This document shows, one piece after another, positions 98 to 26,382 of a DNA stretch of 26,382 bases. The stretch comes from a virus (taxonomy: Duplodnaviria > Heunggongvirae > Uroviricota > Caudoviricetes): IMG/VR virus record IMGVR_UViG_2526164661_000013. One strand, written 5' to 3'. The notes under the pieces are model-generated. The model made no database searches and was not told where the DNA came from. It saw nothing but the letters and a program-made list of their open reading frames with translations. Made by a program: the position numbers and the translations under genes. Numbering within the stretch: the first letter of the stretch is position 1; each line of letters begins with the position of its first letter.

Positions 98-673
98 CTA
101 CGGCAGTGCTGGCCATTCAATATCCTGTGCAGTTGACGTATCAACACGGTTCAGCAATACCCGATACTTTTTCCATGCTTCCAGCAACGAGATTTCTTCC
201 TCCGTTGCAATTTCCAGATCTGCAGCATCCTGAAGCGGCGCAATATGCTCACTGGCTACCTGCATCAGGTTGTTTTTTGTTTCTTCCGCCTCCCGGATCC
301 GGAACAGTTTTTCTGCTTCCGTATCCTTCACCCAGGCTGTGCCGTTCCACTTCTGAAACTCCCCTTCCGGCGATAACCAGGTAACATTTTCCGGTAACGG
401 ACCGAGTTCAGAAATAAATAACGCGTCGCCGGAAGCCACGTCATAAACCGTTTTACCCCGATGATCTTCAACGAGATGCCACGATGACTCATCACTGTTG
501 AAAACAGCCACGAAGCCAGCCGGAATATCTGGCGGTGCAATATCGGTACTGTTTGCTGGCAGACCTGTATGAGGCGGAATATATGCATCACCTTCACCAA
601 TAAATTCATTAGTTCCGGCCAGCAGATTATAAATTTTTATGGTCCGTGGTTGTTCACTCATTCTGAATGCCAT
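98..673 (-). CDS. tfa: Tail fiber assembly protein (lambda Tfa-like chaperone), 191 aa
   Basis: Translation [39 protein letters not shown]... is near-identical over its length to lambda Tfa as I recall it. The start codon overlaps the stf stop as TAATG (671-675), suggesting translational coupling. Confidence 0.9.
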
Positions 674-996
674 TATGCAAGCCTCACAATATAGTTAAAT
701 GCGATGTTTTTGACGGTGTTTTCCGCGTTACCAGCAGCGTTAACGGTGATGGTGTGTCCATGTGAACCAATCGCAACGGAGTGCGTATGAGCACCAATAC
801 CGACAGTATGTGCGTGAGCACCTGCAGATGCAGCTGTGCCGCTGACACTATGAGTGTGCGCTCCTGCAGCACTTGTATTCACACTGGCCGCAGACACTAC
901 CTTATGTACTGACCCATTTTGTGACCACTGGCTGACTGCTGATGCGCCTGTGACACTATGAGTATGGTTTCCGGCACTTGCGGCTGTACCGCTCAC
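673..996 (-). CDS. stf: C-terminal segment of the side tail fiber (His-rich HTHS/HAHT repeats), in the same frame as the upstream stf ORF but separated from it by an in-frame TAG
   Basis: The ORF ends ...[31 protein letters not shown], matching the lambda Stf C-terminus as I recall it. The frame is open from 1050 down to 676; the ORF track start at 996 is a GTG (Val in context). It is in the same reading frame as ORF 1051..3705. Confidence 0.7.
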
Positions 997-1050
997 ACTG
1001 TGCGTATGCGCCCCGATGTTATTCGTGGATTTAGTGCCGTAATCAAACGA

Positions 1051-3699
1051 CTATGTGGTTTTCGTCCCCAAATCCGTACTGGATGCGCTGGCGCTGTGGG
1101 TATGCGATTTAATGCCGTCCTGTTCCTGAGACAATACGGCCCGACCACTGGTAGGTTTGCCCTTAATCGTCCAGCCACGCATATCAGGGATCACGCCTGA
1201 CGGATAAGCCGCTGCAAGTTTCGGGTATGCAGATTTGTCAAAAATCTGCCCCTGCATCAGGGCATAGCCAGACGGAACGGTATCTGATGGCCACGGGATT
1301 GGTGCACCGACTGGATAAAACTCTGCAGGAGGATGAGCCGAGGTGTAAAGCTGCGCCCACGGCGACCAGTTTGCGTCGGTCGTATCCCGTCGTGAACGAA
1401 TAAATGCCGGAGCATGAGCACCGCTTGTACCACTCCAGCCGATGAGTAACTCACCTTCGCCAACGGCTGTCATCCCTTTCAGGTGAATGATATTTCCATA
1501 CGCTGTTGGATATCCGTTGTTATACACCTCGTATAACTCAAGACCTGTTGCCCCCTGCGTATTGTCTGTCAGCGCGGTTACCCGACCTTTTGAAGACAGA
1601 TTAACTGATGATACTGCTGTTCCACCTGACGGTAACGCCCCGATCTCTGATGCCGTTGGCTTATTTCTGGAGTTATAGTCCCTTCGCCAGCCAGGTGAAT
1701 AATCTGTTCCGTGATTAATATAGGTAAACTGGGCGTTAGTTGTTCCACCACCAGTGGAGGTGGTCGGTGTGGTAATGCGGATCGTCATCGCTGATTTTAT
1801 CCCCATTACTTCAATGACAGCTCCGGCGAGATGAATATTACCGCAGTCAGTATCAGTAATGATTTTATTATTGCCATAAGACCAGGAACCCTTGCACATC
1901 CAGTAGGGATGGTTAAATGCTCCCTGAGAATCCAGCCACTCGATAAACTGTGCAGTCGTCCAGTTTCCTGTTATTGTGCTTACTGACCCACCAAAGGCAC
2001 GGCAGGCACCAATATTTTTCGTAAAGGTGTCTTTGCCAGGGATATCCGCACCGTTCTGATCTTTCTGCAGACGTTTCTCAGCATTGTCATAGGCTGTTTT
2101 TACTGCCTTTGGTGTCGCGGCAAGCGTTTCAGACGTGCTGTTGGTCGCGCTGCTTAGCTGGATTATCCCTTTCTGTGCTGTCGTTGCATCCTGTGCGGTG
2201 TATTTCCCGTTAGCCAGGTCATACGCGGCCTTAACGGCTTTTGGTGTTGCCGCCAGTGACTCGGAAGTGCTGTTAGTCGCACTACTGAGCTGTACTATCC
2301 CCTTTTTCGTCGTGCTCGCATCCTCAAGCGCCACAGCGGATGCAATATCCTCTGCCCGTTTTGCTGCTGTCTCGGCGCGCGTTGCTGCGGATTCTGCCGT
2401 ACTCTTGCTCTGTGCTGCCGCCGTCGCACTGCCAGCAGCCTCTGTTGCCTTCGTGGATGCCGTCGTGGCGCTGCCCTTCGCTGCTGACGCTTGTCTGGTC
2501 GCCTCATCTTTTGAAGCAGACGCCGATGAGGCCGATGACGCCGCCGAACTGGCGGACGATGCGGCAGCCGTTTTTGAGGATTCTGCGCTGGTTTCCGACG
2601 CTTTCGCGTTCGTTTCGGATGTCTTCGCTGCGGAAGCTGACCTCGCTGCTGCGCTGGCCTGTTCAGTGGCTTCGCCAGCCTTCGTTGTGGCTGTTGAAGC
2701 GGATGATGCGGCGCTTTCTGCCGATTTTCCGGCGGCGATGGCACTGGCTGAGGCCTGCCCGGCACTTGTTGACGCGGCACTAGCAGACGACGCAGCCGCT
2801 GTTTTTGAGCCTGCCGCAGCTGAGGCGCTCTGTCCCGCTGCCGTCTCAGAAGACCTGGCGTTCGTCTCGGACGTTTTTGCCGCCTTCGCGGAATTTCCTG
2901 CCGCTGTTGCCGAGGAAGCTGCGCTACTGGCGCTCGAGGATGCGTTCGTTTCTGATGATTTTGCCGCCTCTTTTGAAGCCGCCGCATCCCGGGCTGAGGT
3001 GGCAGCTTCTGACGCTTTCGTGGTCGCGGTGGATGCAGAAGTGGCTGCTGATTGTTGTGACGCTGCCGCATTCGTTTCTGACGTTTTCGCGGCACTGGCA
3101 CTGGTAGCTGCCGCGCTTTTTGAGGACTCTGCAGCGGCAGCACTTTTTGATGCTTCAGTGGCCTTTGTTGATGCCGTTCCTGCGCTGGAAGACGCTGACT
3201 GAGCCGACGAAGCGGCCTGTCCGGCTGACGTGCTGGCTGCGCGTGCTGAGCCTGTAGCATCAGTCGCATGGGTTGCCGCCTCACGGGCAGATGTGCCGGC
3301 ATCGCCGGCTGACTTCTTCGCGACTGCCGTGTTCTGTGCCACCACGGACGCGTTACGCGCCACCTCTTCCACCATCAGTTCAAAACGGCGCAGTGCCTCC
3401 GGACGGGCATCATCCTCCGTCATGGCACCGAGAAAATCATTCAGCGTACCGGGTCGGGAATCTTCATACACGGTGATGGTCCCGGCATGTGACGGCGGGA
3501 ATCCCTCCACCAACAGAATAACGCTGTACTGCCCGTACTCAACGTCCATGCTGTAACGCCCGGCTTCATCCGGATTTTCTGAGGCCAGCGTGTTCACCAC
3601 CACCGTGGTACTGTTACGTTTTGCTTTCAGCTGGATTGTGCAGTTCTGTACCGGTTTTCCTGTGCCGTCTTTCAGTACACCTGAAATCTTTACTGCCAT
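1051..3699 (-). CDS. stf: Side tail fiber protein Stf, N-terminal and central part (882 aa from the MAVKISG start), terminated by an in-frame amber codon at 1051-1053
   Basis: [26 protein letters not shown]... matches the lambda Stf N-terminus. The long Ala/Ser/Thr-rich central region and the C-terminal ...[55 protein letters not shown] segment also resemble lambda Stf. The likely start is the ATG at 3697-3699, preceded by GTGGGGTGAAT. Confidence 0.85.
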
Positions 3700-3710
3700 A
3701 TTCACCCCAC

Positions 3711-3737
3711 AAAAAAGCCCGCCTGAACCGGCGGGCT
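3711..3737 (-). terminator. Intrinsic terminator-like hairpin downstream of lom (minus strand): 8-bp GC-rich stem, 6-nt loop, followed by T6
   Basis: Plus strand reads aaaaaa-AGCCCGCC-tgaacc-GGCGGGCT. On the minus strand this is hairpin then TTTTTT, sitting between the lom stop (3764) and the stf start (3699). Confidence 0.55.
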
Positions 3738-3763: not shown

Positions 3764-4363
3764 TCAGAATTTATAACCGACACCCACGATGAAACCGTCA
3801 GTGCGCCAGTCGCCACTGCCGGAACCTTCATAAGCGACATCAATGGCCACGGACTCGGTCGGGTTAAACTGCACGCCAGCCCCCCACGCCAGAGACGTGT
3901 TGCTGTGGCGACCGTCATCACTTCCGGTTAGCACATCGTGCGTTTTCCCCTTATTGTCAGTTACGCGGAGATAATCCCCGGAGAAAGTCGACACACGGCT
4001 GTAAGCCACACCCGCCATCGCATACGCGCTGAACCATTCATTCACGCGTACAGACGGCCCCGCCATCACGCTGAACCAGCGGTTACGCACGGAATCTTCA
4101 TACCAGCGGGTATCGCTGTAACGGGTCAGCTGGCGATTCTTGTCTCCTGCATAGCTGAACGACGTCACCATCCCCAGTGTGTCCGTAAACTCATAACGGT
4201 ATTTCACGTTAATCCCGTTAAGATCATCGCTGCCGGGAACGTTCGTCGAGGCATGAAGATACCCCGCGCTCAGCGTGGACTGATGTTCAGATGCCCATGC
4301 AGGCGCACCGGATACGGCCAGACAAATGGCTGCGGAAAAAATGGCGGCATAAAGTTTACGCAT
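3764..4363 (-). CDS. lom: Lom outer membrane protein (Ail/Lom/PagC family 8-strand beta-barrel), 199 aa with N-terminal signal peptide
   Basis: MRKLYAAIFSAAICLAVSGAPAWA signal sequence; the C-terminus ...AYEGSGSGDWRTDGFIVGVGYKF matches lambda Lom as I recall it. Position between J and stf is as in lambda. Confidence 0.9.
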   Translation of the reverse strand: MRKLYAAIFSAAICLAVSGAPAWASEHQSTLSAGYLHASTNVPGSDDLNGINVKYRYEFTDTLGMVTSFSYAGDKNRQLTRYSDTRWYEDSVRNRWFSVMAGPSVRVNEWFSAYAMAGVAYSRVSTFSGDYLRVTDNKGKTHDVLTGSDDGRHSNTSLAWGAGVQFNPTESVAIDVAYEGSGSGDWRTDGFIVGVGYKF

Positions 4364-4432: not shown

Positions 4433-7400
4433 TCAACGAATACTGATGCCGGAAGCGGCTTTTTTGGTCACAATCACCGTACAGTCGGTGATATTGCCTG
4501 CCCCCTGATTGCCTTTCTGGAAAATCTTAAACTCCAGAGTGACGCTACCACCACCACTAGGCATATCAATAACTGCACTGTAACTACCGGGAATGGCCCC
4601 TTTAGTTTCTCTGGATGCGATTAATACGCCGTTTTTGCGAACTTCAAAACCATAACCCGTGTATCGCGTGCCTCCTGGGTTATTTCCGCTCCCCGGATCG
4701 TCATACGCTATACCGTTAAAAATAATGGGCGGAATAATAATCTGGCGGTCAAAGTTATGATCATCGCTGATGGTGACTGTAACCGTACCGTTTGGTGTTT
4801 CCGTGTTACCCCACGTACCGACTTTTTTCGGGAAGGCTTTTGATACAGCTTTAACGAAATCCCCTCTGACCTGGGTCGCCTCCAGCATGCCCTTAATCGT
4901 ACAGTTCTGGTTAATCGTGACATTGTTGAGCGTTCCTGAGTTCGCATTCACACTACCACTGATATCCGCATTTTTAGCGGTCAGCTTTCCGTCTGATGTC
5001 AGGGAAAATACCGGAGGACTGCCACCGCTGGTAATGGTGGGGGCTGTCAGGCGCTTCAGGAACACGTCGTTCATGAATATCTGGTTGCCCTGCGCCACAA
5101 ACATCGGCGTTTCATTCCCGTTTGCCGGGTCAATAAACGCGATACGGTTAGCGGCAACCAGAAACTGGCTCAGCTTGCCTTCCTCCGTGTCCTCCATGCT
5201 GAGGCCAATACCCGCGACATAATGTTTGCCGTCTTTGGTCTGCTCAATTTTGACGCCCCACATGGCATTCCATTTATCGTTAGCGTCCTTCCACTCTTTC
5301 GAAAACTCATCCAGTCTGCTGGCGTTATCCTCCGTCAGATCAACTTTTTCCAGCAGCTCTTTACCGAGATGGGATTCGGTTATCTTGCCTTTGAAAAAAT
5401 CCAGGTAACCTTCCGCATCATCGCTCGCCCGACCGACGGCCTCCACGAATGCCGATTTGCCAACGGTGTTCACACTGCGGATATAAAAGTAATAATCATG
5501 GCCCGGTTTGATATTGATACTGGCGGCTATCCAGTACAGCCCCGTGCCAAGGTAGCGGGCTGTGGTTTCAACCTGCCTGATATCGGTAATCCGCGTTTCC
5601 GAGAACCAGAACTCAAACTGTACCGTCGGATCATAAACCGCAAGATGCGGCGTGGCAGTTATCTGAAAATAGCCCGGCGTCAGCTCAATCCGCGACGGCG
5701 CTGCCGGGGCGGCAATCCGGAACGATACCGACGCCGGATCGCCCTGCTGTCCCCGGGCATTTACCGCCCGGACCGTCAGCGTGTAACGCCCCAGCGCCAG
5801 CTGCCTGAAGCGGTAAGTGGTTTCCGTCGTCCGGGCCGTGCTGACCAGCCGCTCACTGCCGTCATCGGCGGCCACGGTCAGGCGAAGCATAAAGCTCACA
5901 CCCTTCACTACCTTCGGCGTGTCCCAGCGCGCCAGCACCTGATACTCCCCACTGTCTGCGGTGACTTCTGCGGTCAGGTGCTGCACCGCTGGCGGCGTGA
6001 CACCATTCACCGTGCCGCTCTGGTCGCCGTCAAAGTGCGCTCCGTTATCCACGATGGCCTCTTTTTCCGGCACATGCTGCACGGCAGTGATGGCATACGT
6101 GCCGTCGTCGTTCTCACGGATACTCACACAGCGGAACAGGCGCTGGCGCAGCGTCGGCAGCTTCAGCCCCCACACGCTGTATCCGGCAACGCCGTCAGGA
6201 ACACGGCTCACTTTCACCTTCACGCCGTCGGTGACGGACTGAACCTCCACGCTGACCGGATTGCCACTTCCGTCAACCAGGCTTATCAGCGTGGTACCGG
6301 AGGATGGCAGCGTGATTTCACGGTCGAGCGTCAGCGTCCGGGTCTGGCTGTTCACCGCCAGCACACGCCCGCCGGTGCTGATCCCCGCATAGTCATCATC
6401 ACAGATTTCAATGACATCGCCCGGTACATGGCGAAGCCCTTCTGCGCCCACGCTGAAGTCCACGGTCTGCGTCTCCAGCAGCTCCGTTTTAATCAGCCAC
6501 AGCCCGGCGCGGTGTGCCTGCCCCCGGCTGGTACAGCCAAAGGCATCCATCTTCGTGACGTTACGACCATAACGGACAATGGCCTGCGTATCCTCCACAA
6601 GCTCTGTCGCCGTCTCCCAGCCGTTATTCGGGTCAATCCAGTTCACCTCAACGGCATTATGACGGTCCTTCAGGGCGCTGAAGCTGTAGCGGAACGGCGC
6701 GCCATCATCCGGCATCACCACATTACTGCGGTTATAGGTCCACACCTTATCCGATGGCCGGTCCTGCACGAACGTCAGCGTCTGCCCGTTCCATACCGGC
6801 ATACAGCGCATCGCCGAGCAGAAATCACTGAGCACATCCCACGCCTTGCGCTGCGTGGTCAGGTACGCATTACAGGTGATACGCGGTTCCGTGCCACCAA
6901 AGCCATCCGGCACCGACTGGTCGCAATTCTGGCCGATGACATACAGCGCCCATTTATCCACATCCGCCGCACCAAGACGTTTCCCCATGCCGTAGCGCGG
7001 ATGGGTCAGCATATCCCACAGACACCAGGCCATGTTGTTGCTGTATGCCGGTTGTAACGTTCCGTCCCAGATACCGCTGTATTGTCGCGTCTGCGGGTTA
7101 TAGTTCGACGGCACCTGCAGAATGCGCCCGCGAAGATGATAATTACGGCTCACCTGCTGGCTGCCGAACTGCTCCGAATCCACCTGTACGCCGACCAGTG
7201 CCGTGTTCGGGTAGCACTGTTTCACATCGATGATTTCGGTGTATGACGACCAGAGCGTTTTGTTCTGCAGCTGGTCTGTGGTGCTGTCCGGCGTCATCCT
7301 GCGCATCCGGATATTGAACGGGCGCGGCGGCAGGTTACCCACCACCACCGAGGCCAGATACTGTGAGGTGGTTTTGCCTTTAATGGTGATGTCTTTTTCC

Positions 7401-7846
7401 GTCACCCAGCCACCGTTACGTTGTATCTGAACCAGCAGGCGGACTTCCGACGGATTCCTGTCCCCCTTTGAGGTGGTTTCCACCAGTGCCTGCACGCCGA
7501 AGGTAAAACGCAGTCGGTCAATGTTTGCCGACGTGATGGTCCGGGTGATCGGCGTGTCGTATTTCACTTCCGTACCCAGCACCGCCTCGGAGCCGGAGGA
7601 TTCAAATCCCTCCGGCGGTGTCTGCTCCTGCTCACCGGCCCGGAACACCACCGTGACGCCGGAGATGTTGGTATTCCCCTCAGTGTCCAGCACTGGCGTA
7701 CTGTTCAGCAGCACGCTTTTTAATCCATCCACCGGACCTTCAACCGGCCCTTCGCTGATGGCATCGATCACACTCAGCAACTGCGTGGACTTCAGGTTGT
7801 CCTTCGCTTCGCGCGGAGTATGCCCCTTACTGCTGCCTTTACCCAT
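4433..7846 (-). CDS. J: Tail tip / host specificity protein J (central tail fiber), 1137 aa
   Basis: [54 protein letters not shown]... matches lambda gpJ over roughly the first 980 residues. The last ~150 residues are unlike the lambda C-terminus I recall. Confidence 0.95.
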
Positions 7847-24356: not shown

Positions 24357-24446
24357 TGCTGGTTCAGAGTTAAAAAAACTATTATTTTTTTCATAATGTT
24401 ACCGTAATAGTAAGCGTGCAGCAAGAACCGTATTGACGGGGATGTG

Positions 24447-25985
24447 TTATTCAGTCGGCAGTGCTACGCGCCAGGGGAGCAGTTCGCCGACCCGGTTTAT
24501 CGGCCAGTCGGCTATGACGTCAAGGACATAGCGGAGGTAGCTTTCTGGCTCCACTCCGTTCAGTTTGCACGTCCCGATCAGGCTGTACAGCAGCGCTCCC
24601 CGCTCTCCTCCATGATCCGAACCGAAGAACAGGTAGTTTTTGCGGCCCAGACTGACCATCCGCAACGCATTTTCAGCGATGTTATTGTCCGCCTCAGCCC
24701 AGCCATCATCTGCATAGTACGTCAGCGCCGGCCACTGGTTCAGGGCGTATGCGAACGCTTTCGCCAGTTCTGAGTGTCGCGACAGGGTTTTCATCTTTTC
24801 ACGCAACCAGCTTTCCAGGGATTTCAACAGCGGTTTCGTTTTTCGCTGACGTTCAGCAAGCCGCTGCTCTGCCGGCATTCCCCTTATATCCGCCTCTATG
24901 GCGTACAACTGACCGATCTGCTCCAGGGCTTCTTCCGTCAGTGCTGACGGGATGCGGACGTGCACATCGTGGATCTTTCGGCGGGCATGAGCCCAGCAGG
25001 CAGCTTCCGTTATCCCACCATTGCGATACAGCTCGTTGAACCCGGCGTACGCATCCGCTTGCAGCACACCGCTGAAGCAGGCAAGATGAGTCTGCGGATG
25101 GATGCCTTTTCTGTCCGGGCTGTAAGCGAACCACACTGCAGGTGCCAACGCTGACCCGGCATTGCGGTCATCACGAACATACGCCCACAACCGCCCGGTC
25201 TTCGTCTTCCTATTACCCGGCAGCAGTACCTGGACCGGGGTATCATCGGCATGGAGTTTGCCGTCAGTCATGACATAGCCATGAAGCGCCTCTTCCAGCG
25301 GAGACAGCAGCCGGCAGCATGCATCCACCCAGCCCGACAGCAGTGAACGGCTCAGCTCCACACCTTGCCGGCCGTATATTTCTGACTGGCGATACAGCGG
25401 GGTGTGCTCTGCATACTTCGAGGTCAGCACGCGGGCCAGCAGCCCCGGTCCGGCGATACCCCGCTCGATGGGCCGCGAAGGTGCAGGTGCCTGCACGATG
25501 GCATCGCACTGAGTACAGGCATGTTTTTCCCGTACCGTCCGGATAACCCGGAAGGCACTACGCATCAACTCCAGCTGTTCGGCGGTATCCTCGCCCAGAT
25601 AGCTCAGTGAACCGCCGCAGTTCGGGCAGCACGGCGCCGCAGGCAACAGTCGCTTTTCGTCACGGGGTAGTGATTCAGGGAACGGCTTACGGGTGCGGGT
25701 CTGACGCAACGGACGCTGTACAGCCGGGTCATACACCCTACCAGTCAGCGTATCGCTCTCTTTCTGAAGCCGGTTCAGATCGGCTTCCATTTGTGCGATA
25801 CGGCGGGAGACTTTTTCGGAACGACTGCCGAAGTTCATCCGGCGGAGTTTATCCAGCTGCGCCTGCAGATGGTCTATTTCGCGCTCCCGGTTGCTCAGCT
25901 TTTCCTGCAGGGCGTGGATCAGCGCTTCCTGTTCGGCCAGGCGCTGTTTCAGCAGGAAGATGTCGTCAGAAGAGATGTCGTTCAT
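24447..25985 (-). CDS. tnpC: IS66-family transposase TnpC (orf3), 512 aa
   Basis: N-terminal leucine-zipper-like coiled coil ([24 protein letters not shown]), the zinc-finger-like CPNCGGSL...CTQCD motif and a DDE-type core are typical of IS66 TnpC. Confidence 0.9.
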
Positions 25986-26034
25986 AAGCCCGTATTTTAC
26001 CGGGCTTATTCTGTGACAACCAGGATAAAGAGAT

Positions 26035-26382
26035 TTACAGCATGGTCAGGGAGGTCAGCAACCGCTTGGGCTGTCGCCAGTCGATACCTTCCAGCAGCAT
26101 CGCCAGCTGCGCCTGCGTAAGGAACACTTTGCCATCACGGGCTGACGGCCAGGCGAAGCGCCCACGCTCCAGCCGTTTGGTCAGGAGGCACAGTCCGTCA
26201 CCGGTGGACCACAGCAGTTTAACCTGACTGCCGCTGCGGCCCCGGAAAATGAAAACATGGCCGGACATGGGATCGTCTTTCAGCGCCGTTTGTACTTTCG
26301 CAGCCAGGCCGTTGAAGCCATTTCTCATATCGGTGATACCGGCAACCAGCCAAATTTTGGTCCCGGAAGGTAACGGGATCAT
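26035..26382 (-). CDS. tnpB: IS66-family accessory protein TnpB (orf2), 115 aa
   Basis: [31 protein letters not shown]...[36 protein letters not shown] is characteristic of IS66 Orf2. The start codon is the last three bases of the window. Confidence 0.85.

Follow-up and report, generated by a model that had tools for sequence, protein, structure and literature searches.

A resident lambdoid prophage of the mEp460_ev081 type very probably carries a genuine nonsense (amber) mutation in its side tail fibre gene, stf, in which Ser codon 883 is changed from TCG to TAG by one C-to-A transversion. The window, i.e. the whole 26,382-nt stretch of DNA that we analysed (IMG/VR record IMGVR_UViG_2526164661_000013), is a lambda-like E. 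coli prophage of the mEp460_ev081 type. Aligned without gaps to Escherichia phage mEp460_ev081 (LR597641) over 21,794 nt, it shows 11 mismatches (∼99.95% identity); it also has an IS66-family insertion that the phage lacks, and its other structural genes are intact (19/19). The affected gene is dispensable, and the amber allele is in all likelihood an unremarkable loss-of-function mutation; loss of this gene is already known from laboratory lambda. Indeed, the side fibres of lambda are dispensable and were lost from the laboratory phage by a frameshift (PMC12617516).

The stf frame and its single amber codon

The stf gene lies on the minus strand, starting with an ATG at 3699 and ending with the TAA at 673–675, a CDS of 3027 nt. 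The 884-codon ORF (1051..3705) and the 107-codon ORF (673..996) lie on this strand in a common frame, with no stop among the 18 codons at 997–1050, and translation of 673–3699 gave 1009 codons with two stops: the TAG at codon 883 (1051–1053) and the terminal TAA. The first-pass annotation had proposed that the two ORFs are one stf frame broken by a single in-frame TAG, and both the ORF list and the translation agree with this, including the flanking peptide as it was given around the TAG. Its MAVKIS start at 3699 was also confirmed, as the ATG at this position matches annotated homologues of equal CDS length (3027 nt), and the GTG at 3705 is a mechanical ORF start only. The predicted read-through product is one long chain, as it had suggested, but of 1008 aa (882 + 1 + 125) rather than ∼1007. 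The changed base is window position 1052, which is A on the coding strand and T on the plus strand. Only 0.2% of shuffles of 676–1050 were free of in-frame stops, therefore the open frame downstream of the TAG is not a chance occurrence. Moreover, the 125 codons 3′ of the TAG encode a protein segment identical to that of the intact Stf of E. coli E9.

At the orthologous position, a TCG (Ser) codon is present in lambda, mEp460_ev081, E. coli E9 and Salmonella phage SPF_0923 (loci L001–L004), as it is in 124/125 fetched loci. Since the relatives have TCG, this comparison identifies the base change as a C-to-A transversion (TCG to TAG), consistent with the earlier expectation of a Ser codon altered at a single base. 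The lambda sequence given for this site was likewise correct (lambda orf-314 reads DLGTKTTSSFDYGTKTT), and the alignment with intact stf alleles that had been suggested as a check returned the sense codon. In mEp460_ev081, stf (Stf of 1023 aa) is alike to codon 882 bar one synonymous change, and the TAG is the sole non-synonymous stf change upstream of the tip patch described below; codon 883 of the phage is TCG, and its tip module differs from that of the window and is 15 residues longer. Codons 1–882 encode a sequence 100% identical over all 882 aa to an E. coli protein of 1023 aa (P0002).

The stop is rare and not conserved, and orthologues are one base away. Carriers of the TAG can be recognised by the k-mer ACCACATAGTCGTTTGATTACGG. 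A TAG-bearing 61-mer had no exact match at any of the 4,939 places covered in 3,377 complete E. coli records, nor in 21 phage and 94 plasmid records. A TAG-bearing 32-mer was absent from genome_contigs (species-representative genomes) and from metagenome_contigs (0 in each), and matched once in viral_contigs (IMG/VR), whereas the TCG 32-mer occurred at least 120 times in viral_contigs. At the protein level, a search for truncated relatives found no cluster of 882–884 aa among the best 120; the complete clusters among these were mostly of 1008–1037 aa, and the shortest listed had 995 aa. An exact look-up of the 882-aa product itself likewise gave no entry.

These data bear on whether the TAG could instead be the boundary of two separate genes, one for a shaft protein and one for a small tip protein. 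The 107-aa ORF (673–996) is called separately in at least 24 public contigs, as such an arrangement would predict. However, eight of the 10 contigs shown keep the motif and 8/8 of these have TCG, the separate calls arising from other upstream lesions or deletions; with the 107-aa ORF as a probe, no further amber carriers appeared among these 10 contigs of at least 24. Relatives annotate one continuous CDS, of 1008–1023 aa, and the stop is not a conserved gene boundary among them. Furthermore, in T4 gp37 the homologous domain is formed by one chain, which continues past this point and then runs back to the collar. The TCG codon in relatives, in 124/125 loci and in the contigs with the 107-aa ORF refutes the two-gene arrangement, which we consider next to impossible. 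For annotation, the 882-aa and 107-aa ORFs should be joined as one stf pseudogene or amber allele and not listed as two genes.

Alternatively, a suppressor tRNA, from either host or phage, or the sequence context might allow read-through of the stop, yielding fibre at a low or host-dependent level. The protein-coding frame is intact for 125 codons past the stop (identical to E9) and the downstream tfa is intact, as would be needed, but the intact frame is more simply explained by a recent origin of the stop or its import with the tip patch. The stop is found in one of 125 other loci and in none of thousands of E. coli copies, and TAG is the true terminator of the M-like gene and of tfa in the same element. 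No tRNA was found in the window, and the only tRNAs of mEp460_ev081 are tRNA-Met(CAT) and tRNA-Arg(TCT), neither of them a suppressor. Thus neither feature expected of recoding was found, i.e. a conserved stop, or an element-borne suppressor tRNA or TAG unused as a terminator, and we rejected read-through as an explanation, judging it extremely unlikely. The host may have a chromosomal amber suppressor outside the window.

Predicted loss of the gp37-like distal domain

The stf locus has the organisation of its family (Table 1). The genes lie in the order J – lom – stf – tfa, all of them on the minus strand, and lambda and mEp460_ev081 share this arrangement. Stf has the lambda-type N-terminal attachment domain (PF08400, residues 1–134, E = 2.6e-71, 238 bits against a cutoff of 26.6), followed by two matches to PF03406 and one to PF07484 at 798–845. 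At its C-terminus, a gp37-like region with collar, stem, tip and HxH motifs is encoded too. However, unlike its continuous relatives, stf is not a single uninterrupted frame here. With the TAG at codon 883 and continuous relatives, we conclude that the stf locus is probably an inactivated allele of the family and not a working member. Downstream, the ATG of tfa overlaps the stf TAA (TAATG), and relatives annotate this gene as a tail fibre assembly protein. The exact Tfa protein is widespread and elsewhere adjoins a pin-like recombinase.

Table 1. Features of the stf locus in the window
Feature	Coordinates	Strand	Encoded product or content	Basis
stf 5′ part, codons 1–882	1054..3699	−	N-terminal tail-attachment domain, Ala/Ser-rich shaft, two Phage_fiber_2 repeats, collar domain, first HxH motif	ORF and translation
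Amber codon TAG, codon 883	1051..1053	−		Sequence and translation
stf 3′ part, codons 884–1008 and TAA (673–675)	673..1050	−	Stem, receptor-binding tip, returning stem, last collar strand, six HxH motifs; untranslated unless the amber codon is suppressed	Open frame
Putative tip recombination patch	791..1101 maximal, 811–1052 minimal	−		Four-way alignment
tfa	98..673	−	Tail fibre assembly chaperone, 191 aa	PF02413 Caudo_TAP, E = 4e-43
lom, directly upstream of stf	3764..4363	−	Ail/Lom outer-membrane protein	PF06316, E = 1e-118; relatives' annotation
Terminator-like element between lom and stf	3716..3737	−	GC-rich hairpin followed by a T run	Consensus scan, pattern match only
J, intact	4433..7846	−	Central tail fibre / host specificity protein, 1137 aa	ORF; relatives' annotation

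The C-terminal 215 residues of Stf align with residues 785–1026 of T4 gp37, the needle of the distal long tail fibre (PDB 2XGF, E = 7e-88), to the last residue, and the TAG aligns with gp37 Ser900 (numbering checked against PMC6957217). In gp37, residues 882–1009 form a stem and tip inserted into a collar (811–881 and 1010–1026), and seven irons are bound (PMC6957217). Both proteins have seven HxH motifs and a collar-stem-tip-stem-collar topology, although the T4 tip subdomain (932–959) is unrelated in sequence to the tip in the window. The 882-aa product lacks 6/7 of the HxH metal-binding motifs (those starting at residues 898, 912, 948, 962, 971 and 980), the receptor tip and the returning strands, which bears out the first-pass description of the lost part as a His-rich distal domain.

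In a non-suppressing host, translation would halt past residue 882. The product would retain the N-terminal region that attaches to the tail, the shaft and the greater part of the collar, and would lack the equivalent of gp37 900–1026, that is, most of the iron-binding stem, the tip, the returning strands and the last strand needed to complete the collar. By comparison with gp37, the stem would be a trimer of intertwined chains that run out and back, with Tfa required as a chaperone for its folding, therefore the truncated chain is expected not to form a working fibre. Homology with T4 and lambda thus suggests that fibre function is lost and that virions would lack functional side fibres. As in lambda PaPa, adsorption would be slowed and plaque formation need not stop, since the window has intact copies of J and of all its other structural genes.

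An amber-suppressor host would be predicted to restore the full-length fibre. In T4, gp37 amber mutants at 913–978 were obtained as conditional mutants on suppressor hosts (PMC6957217). Amber codons in this domain of T4 behave as conditional null alleles that suppressor hosts rescue; those in T4 were engineered, whereas the one in the window is natural, and the T4 long fibres are essential, in contrast to the accessory side fibres of lambdoid phages. Work that induces this prophage, or uses its Stf for host-range engineering, should reckon with fibre-less particles; reversion of the codon or an amber-suppressor host would avoid this.

A short tip patch shared with a divergent prophage

The single viral_contigs match to the TAG 32-mer was a second IMG/VR contig, UViG_2526164661_000008 (L005), an independent, divergent prophage contig that has the same tip patch and the same TAG and is 2.8% divergent from the window elsewhere. 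In a four-way alignment, the window equals mEp460_ev081 at diagnostic sites ≥1102 and ≤790, and equals L005 and E. coli E9 (L002) at 1016–811, with 130 variable columns relative to mEp460_ev081 within 842–1000. The patch measures 262–311 nt, with a hypervariable core at 842–996, and the TAG at 1052 is common to the window and L005 only among the aligned sequences.

Because L005 has the same patch and the same TAG, we consider the TAG allele to be real and to have probably moved by recombination, as judged from these alignments. The competing possibility of a sequencing or assembly error, with C as the true base and stf intact, has some appeal given that the difference is a single base called from the assembly only, and that the allele is almost unique, the E. 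coli, phage, plasmid, genome and metagenome collections containing no exact match. Yet the same TAG is present at the same codon in L005 despite 2.8% divergence, and an identical stop produced by substitution error in two unrelated assemblies is very improbable. The window assembly also appears accurate, with only 10 other sites that differ from mEp460_ev081 and no indels. We therefore regard an error as most unlikely. The stf of L005 contains three more 1-nt indels, two of them in G runs, which may be sequencing errors and lower confidence in this contig; 3/3 of these indels fall within stf, but stf makes up half of the contig and this distribution is not significant as a sign of long-standing decay.

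The patch is otherwise identical in TCG-bearing alleles too (L002, L031 and L058). Judged by the one site they share, the TAG copies of the window and L005 are most likely identical by descent; alternatively, two independent C-to-A hits may lie behind them. We infer that the direction of transfer was into the mEp460_ev081-like backbone. A single origin of the TAG, on this tip type, is most likely, and it would have entered this backbone with the tip swap, when the ∼0.3 kb patch was presumably exchanged by homologous recombination between conserved motifs that flank the variable tip. If so, short-patch exchange of tip modules can move an inactivating mutation between prophages.

The idea that conserved His-box motifs serve as recombination boundaries in T-even adhesins belongs to the general background of the field, and Tetart and colleagues reportedly described such boundaries in 1998. 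Literature on 'His boxes' and mEp460 added nothing specific. For lambda itself, recombination with prophage stf/tfa was shown experimentally (De Paepe et al. 2014, PMC3945230). As proposed for the window, homologous recombination within diverged stf/tfa leaves short mosaic patches there and can inactivate the fibre. That exchange took place in the laboratory, with the Rac and Qin prophages and marker cassettes, whereas the exchange in the window is deduced from natural sequences.

Possible recurrent inactivation of stf

The first-pass annotation had also suggested that inactivation of stf in lambdoid elements may be a repeated event. To obtain a base rate, we sampled 50 loci with a complete stf of the family and required the Stf N-terminus, as the conserved motif alone is common to unrelated fibre genes with other N-termini and is unsuited to this purpose. 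Eight of the 50 genes were interrupted, at different sites, which partly supports repeated inactivation; the sample is small and includes two lambda copies and draft assemblies.

Such interruptions could reflect selection, if fast adsorption were costly in structured or biofilm-like habitats or through superinfection of lysogens and the TAG had spread by recombination as an advantageous allele. The same TAG occurs in two prophage backbones, 8/50 complete stf genes are interrupted at various sites, and at least 24 contigs retain the 107-aa ORF as an isolated remnant, with lesions of other kinds upstream. In the laboratory, lambda has lost stf, a high adsorption rate reportedly harmed isogenic lambda in a biofilm-like environment (PMC2762979), and stf/tfa inactivation reportedly lets lambda grow better in soft agar (PMC3945230). 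Set against this are two carriers of the TAG versus thousands of TCG alleles, a rarity as expected of an allele that drifts neutrally, or at a slight cost, in prophages, where virion genes are unexpressed. Some interruptions in draft assemblies may be errors, and two sequences are too few for a selection test. Selected loss is, in our judgement, unlikely. A related idea is a circulating, recombination-borne 'off' cassette, in which a tip module with a suppressible stop moves between lambdoid prophages and is kept because some habitats favour particles without fibres, or fibres produced in suppressor hosts only. The same TAG and ∼0.3-kb patch in backbones 2.8% apart, with the downstream frame preserved, leave room for such a cassette, which we nevertheless consider very unlikely. 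We favour an ordinary loss-of-function allele, one more natural case of an expendable accessory side fibre in lambdoid phages, and as such it opens no new question.

The closest precedent is lambda PaPa (Hendrix and Duda 1992, cited in PMC12617516), with the same gene family, the same J-lom-stf-tfa position and the same C-terminal gp37-like domain as the window. Its record contains the independent stf lesion that the first-pass annotation had mentioned, a frameshift seen as orf-401 and orf-314. As in the window, one small lesion splits stf into two same-strand ORFs and leaves the other virion genes intact; the side fibres are lost in lambda PaPa, and the same is predicted for the prophage in the window. 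The lesion in lambda PaPa is a 1-nt frameshift near codon 401/774, whereas that of the window is an amber at codon 883/1008, thus the N-terminal product would be much longer than that of lambda PaPa and the mutation would be suppressible. Lambda PaPa is a laboratory stock and the window allele is in a natural mEp460_ev081-type prophage; the fibre tip of lambda also differs in specificity type from that of the window.

The stf reading frame and its amber codon

Translation of the side tail fibre gene stf revealed exactly two stops in its frame, a TAG at 1051-1053 (codon 883) and the terminal TAA. Therefore the 884-codon ORF (1051-3705) and the 107-codon ORF (673-996) of the minus strand are one frame with one interruption, and the 18 codons between them are open, as the first-pass annotation had claimed. 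Its estimate of ∼1007 aa for the read-through product needed a small correction, the computed length being 1008 aa. The GTG at 3705 that opens the 884-codon ORF is a mechanical start; the ATG at 3699 has a GGGG Shine-Dalgarno-like run in front of it and is the start annotated in homologues. The open frame downstream of the TAG is not due to chance, because shuffling 676-1050 left just 0.2% of the sequences free of an in-frame stop, and the peptide encoded there shows homology to known fibre tips up to its last residue. Two shadow ORFs lie over the Ala/Ser-rich repetitive shaft of stf, one of 355 aa (2135-3202, plus strand) and one of 335 aa (2295-3302, minus strand, other frame), and are probably artefacts of biased repeat composition; the lambda record has a similar antisense annotation, orf206b, within stf.

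The protein begins with a prophage tail fibre N-terminal domain (Pfam; residues 1-134, E=3e-71), followed by two Phage_fiber_2 repeats and a collar domain at 798-845. Upstream of stf lie lom and then J, and the arrangement J-lom-stf-tfa is the lambda order. Where stf meets tfa, the TAA of the one and the ATG of the other overlap as TAATG. In tests of Stf family membership, the locus fell within the family at the DNA level and its frame was found to be interrupted, so we read it as an inactivated allele of a known gene.

Features of the stf locus and the late-region insertion
Feature	Position	Strand	Description
stf	673-3699	-	ATG at 3699 (MAVKISG...) to TAA at 673-675; 3027 nt, 1009 codons including terminator
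tfa, tail fibre assembly chaperone	98-673	-	Caudo_TAP match (Pfam)
Terminator-like hairpin	3716-3737	-	Strong; 8 pairs, 7 of them G-C, then TTTTT; between lom and the stf start; consensus match alone
IS66-family insertion sequence	24410-26382		Late region of the prophage; mEp460_ev081 is continuous at that place
tnpC of the IS66-family element	24447-25985	-	512 aa; PF03050, E=1e-105
tnpB of the IS66-family element	26035-26382		Cut by the window end

Origin and rarity of the TAG allele

The codon orthologous to 883 is TCG (Ser) in lambda, Escherichia phage mEp460_ev081 (hereafter ev081), E. coli E9 and Salmonella phage SPF_0923, and in 124 of the 125 loci fetched from public collections. Thus, the predicted single-base change from TCG is borne out as one C-to-A transversion on the coding strand. 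The lambda sequence given in the first-pass annotation was also right, with lambda orf-314 reading DLGTKTTSSFDYGTKTT. A conserved stop separating two genes, which would have spoken against an interrupted stf, was not found: relatives have TCG, and a length of 882-884 aa does not occur in the 120 top-ranked protein clusters with homology to the 882-aa product. Most of the complete clusters listed measured 1008-1037 aa, and the shortest 995 aa. Across all 882 residues, the truncated product is 100% identical to an E. coli protein of 1023 aa.

Searches with a TAG-centred 61-mer, which miss any TAG allele with a second mismatch within 30 nt, gave no exact match in 3,377 complete E. coli genome records (4,939 places; best 60/61), 21 phage records or 94 plasmid records. 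A 32-mer containing the TAG was likewise found in none of 185,579 species-representative genomes and in no JGI metagenome contig. In IMG/VR it occurred once, in a 6,018-nt contig (UViG_2526164661_000008, here L005); its TCG version occurs in at least 120 IMG/VR contigs. Apart from L005, the TAG allele is in no collection searched.

These results do not support recoding or programmed read-through of the TAG. The stop at codon 883 is not conserved, the M-like gene and tfa of this element both end in TAG, and no tRNA was found in the window. The near-identical ev081 carries only tRNA-Met(CAT) and tRNA-Arg(TCT) (39283-39535), downstream of Q-like genes and outside the window-homologous part, and neither is a suppressor. 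A chromosomal suppressor in the host would concern the host genome, which lies outside the window.

Prophage backbone and the recombined fibre tip

By sequence comparison, the window is the left arm of a lambdoid prophage nearly identical to ev081 (LR597641). From 22790 down to 997 it matches ev081 1-21794 with 11 mismatches and no gaps. Five mismatches precede the stop (four synonymous and portal R232C), one is the TAG itself, and the last five form the start of a divergent block. R232C (window 19267, CGT to TGT) is the sole non-synonymous difference from ev081 outside stf in 21.8 kb, and the structural genes, 19 in all from the small terminase subunit through lom, are each intact. The window runs across both ends of the linear ev081 record (22790/22791, cos region), so the element is a prophage or a circular form rather than a packaged linear genome. 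The junction between the IS66-family element and gnsB is also present in E. coli TW14425 (NZ_CP127265) at 99.2% identity.

A four-way alignment (window, ev081, L005 and E. coli E9) revealed a mosaic stf. At every diagnostic site at or above 1102 and at or below 790 the window equals ev081, and its ev081-type variants at 1244, 1210, 1152, 1102, 778 and 766 are absent from ten other carriers of the tip type. Across 1016-811 it equals L005 and E. coli E9, with 130 alignment columns differing from ev081. Together, these identities indicate an ev081-type phage in which a 262-311-nt patch (maximally 791-1101; codons 867/883 to 963/970) replaced the stem-tip-stem module. The patch borders are conserved protein segments on both sides, and the TAG lies at its left edge. 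Experimental work has shown lambdoid phages exchanging parts of stf/tfa in this way with resident prophages (PMC3945230).

Overall identity between L005 and the window is 97.2%, rising to full identity across 791-1101, TAG included. Within the patch, three TCG alleles (L002, L031 and L058) differ from the window only at position 1052. Two independent assemblies with different backbones thus have the same stop on the same tip haplotype, making a sequencing error very unlikely as the source of the TAG. The shared haplotype points to one origin with later recombination as the likelier history; a second, independent C-to-A hit at codon 883 in L005 or the window is formally conceivable. In addition, L005 stf contains three indels of 1 nt: a G gained at 1719 and a G lost at each of 1162 and 1142, both of these within runs of G. 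Its J, lom and tfa have none. These indels may represent further pseudogene decay or sequencing error.

Predicted fibre defect and stf lesions elsewhere

Alignment of the read-through protein with the crystallised T4 gp37 C-terminus (PDB 2XGF, E=7e-88) is end to end over its final 215 residues. With numbering checked against the residues named in PMC6957217 (H929, Y932, E934 and W936), the TAG corresponds to gp37 Ser900. In gp37, a needle, D11 (882-1009; stem 882-931 and 960-1009, tip 932-959), is inserted into a collar, D10 (811-881 and 1010-1026), and holds seven histidine-bound iron ions along its length (PMC6957217). Read-through Stf has seven HxH motifs (first His at 866, 898, 912, 948, 962, 971 and 980), six of them after codon 883.

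In a non-suppressing host, ribosomes would stop at codon 883 and release an 882-aa chain, predicted to retain the tail-attachment domain, the shaft, the outward part of the collar and one HxH motif, and to lack the equivalents of gp37 900-1026. Since each gp37 needle chain runs out to the tip and returns, completing stem and collar (PMC6957217), truncation where the outward stem begins should prevent a chain from forming an iron-clamped trimeric needle or receptor-binding tip. In agreement, T4 mutants with amber codons engineered into gp37 at 913-978 were obtained and grown on suppressor hosts as conditional mutants (PMC6957217), which fits a null effect of truncation in this domain. Lambda side fibres make adsorption 10-30-fold faster and leave plaque number unchanged (PMC12617516), so the phage would be expected to remain viable and to lack working side fibres. 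Given the stf-tfa overlap, termination 378 nt upstream of tfa may also lower tfa expression, through lost translational coupling or polarity.

Laboratory lambda lacks side fibres owing to a frameshift (PMC12617516), and this independent lambda PaPa lesion, mentioned in the first-pass annotation, is visible in the record as the orf-401/orf-314 split. It is the closest known case, alike in gene, position and consequence. The two differ in lesion type (suppressible nonsense in the window, frameshift in lambda PaPa), in position along stf (88% versus 52%) and in setting, the window being a natural prophage. The stf finding is real and its initial interpretation correct, but this kind of event is well known and the finding is ordinary.

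The broader suggestion that stf is repeatedly inactivated gained partial support. Among 50 fetched loci with the Stf N-terminus, the conserved site and a complete 3′ end, a small sample that includes draft assemblies, 42 were intact and eight (two lambda PaPa copies and L005 among them) were interrupted, at different positions. Selected loss of the side fibre is possible, with two carriers of the TAG. At least 24 contigs have the 107-aa remnant ORF called as a gene of its own. Of ten listed (L126-L135), eight keep the motif, each with TCG at codon 883 and with other lesions or deletions further upstream. The causes of these separate calls vary: frameshifts, deletions fusing the ORF to trkG-like or tail-chaperone genes, and another in-frame stop, 43 codons upstream, that occurs in 17 samples.
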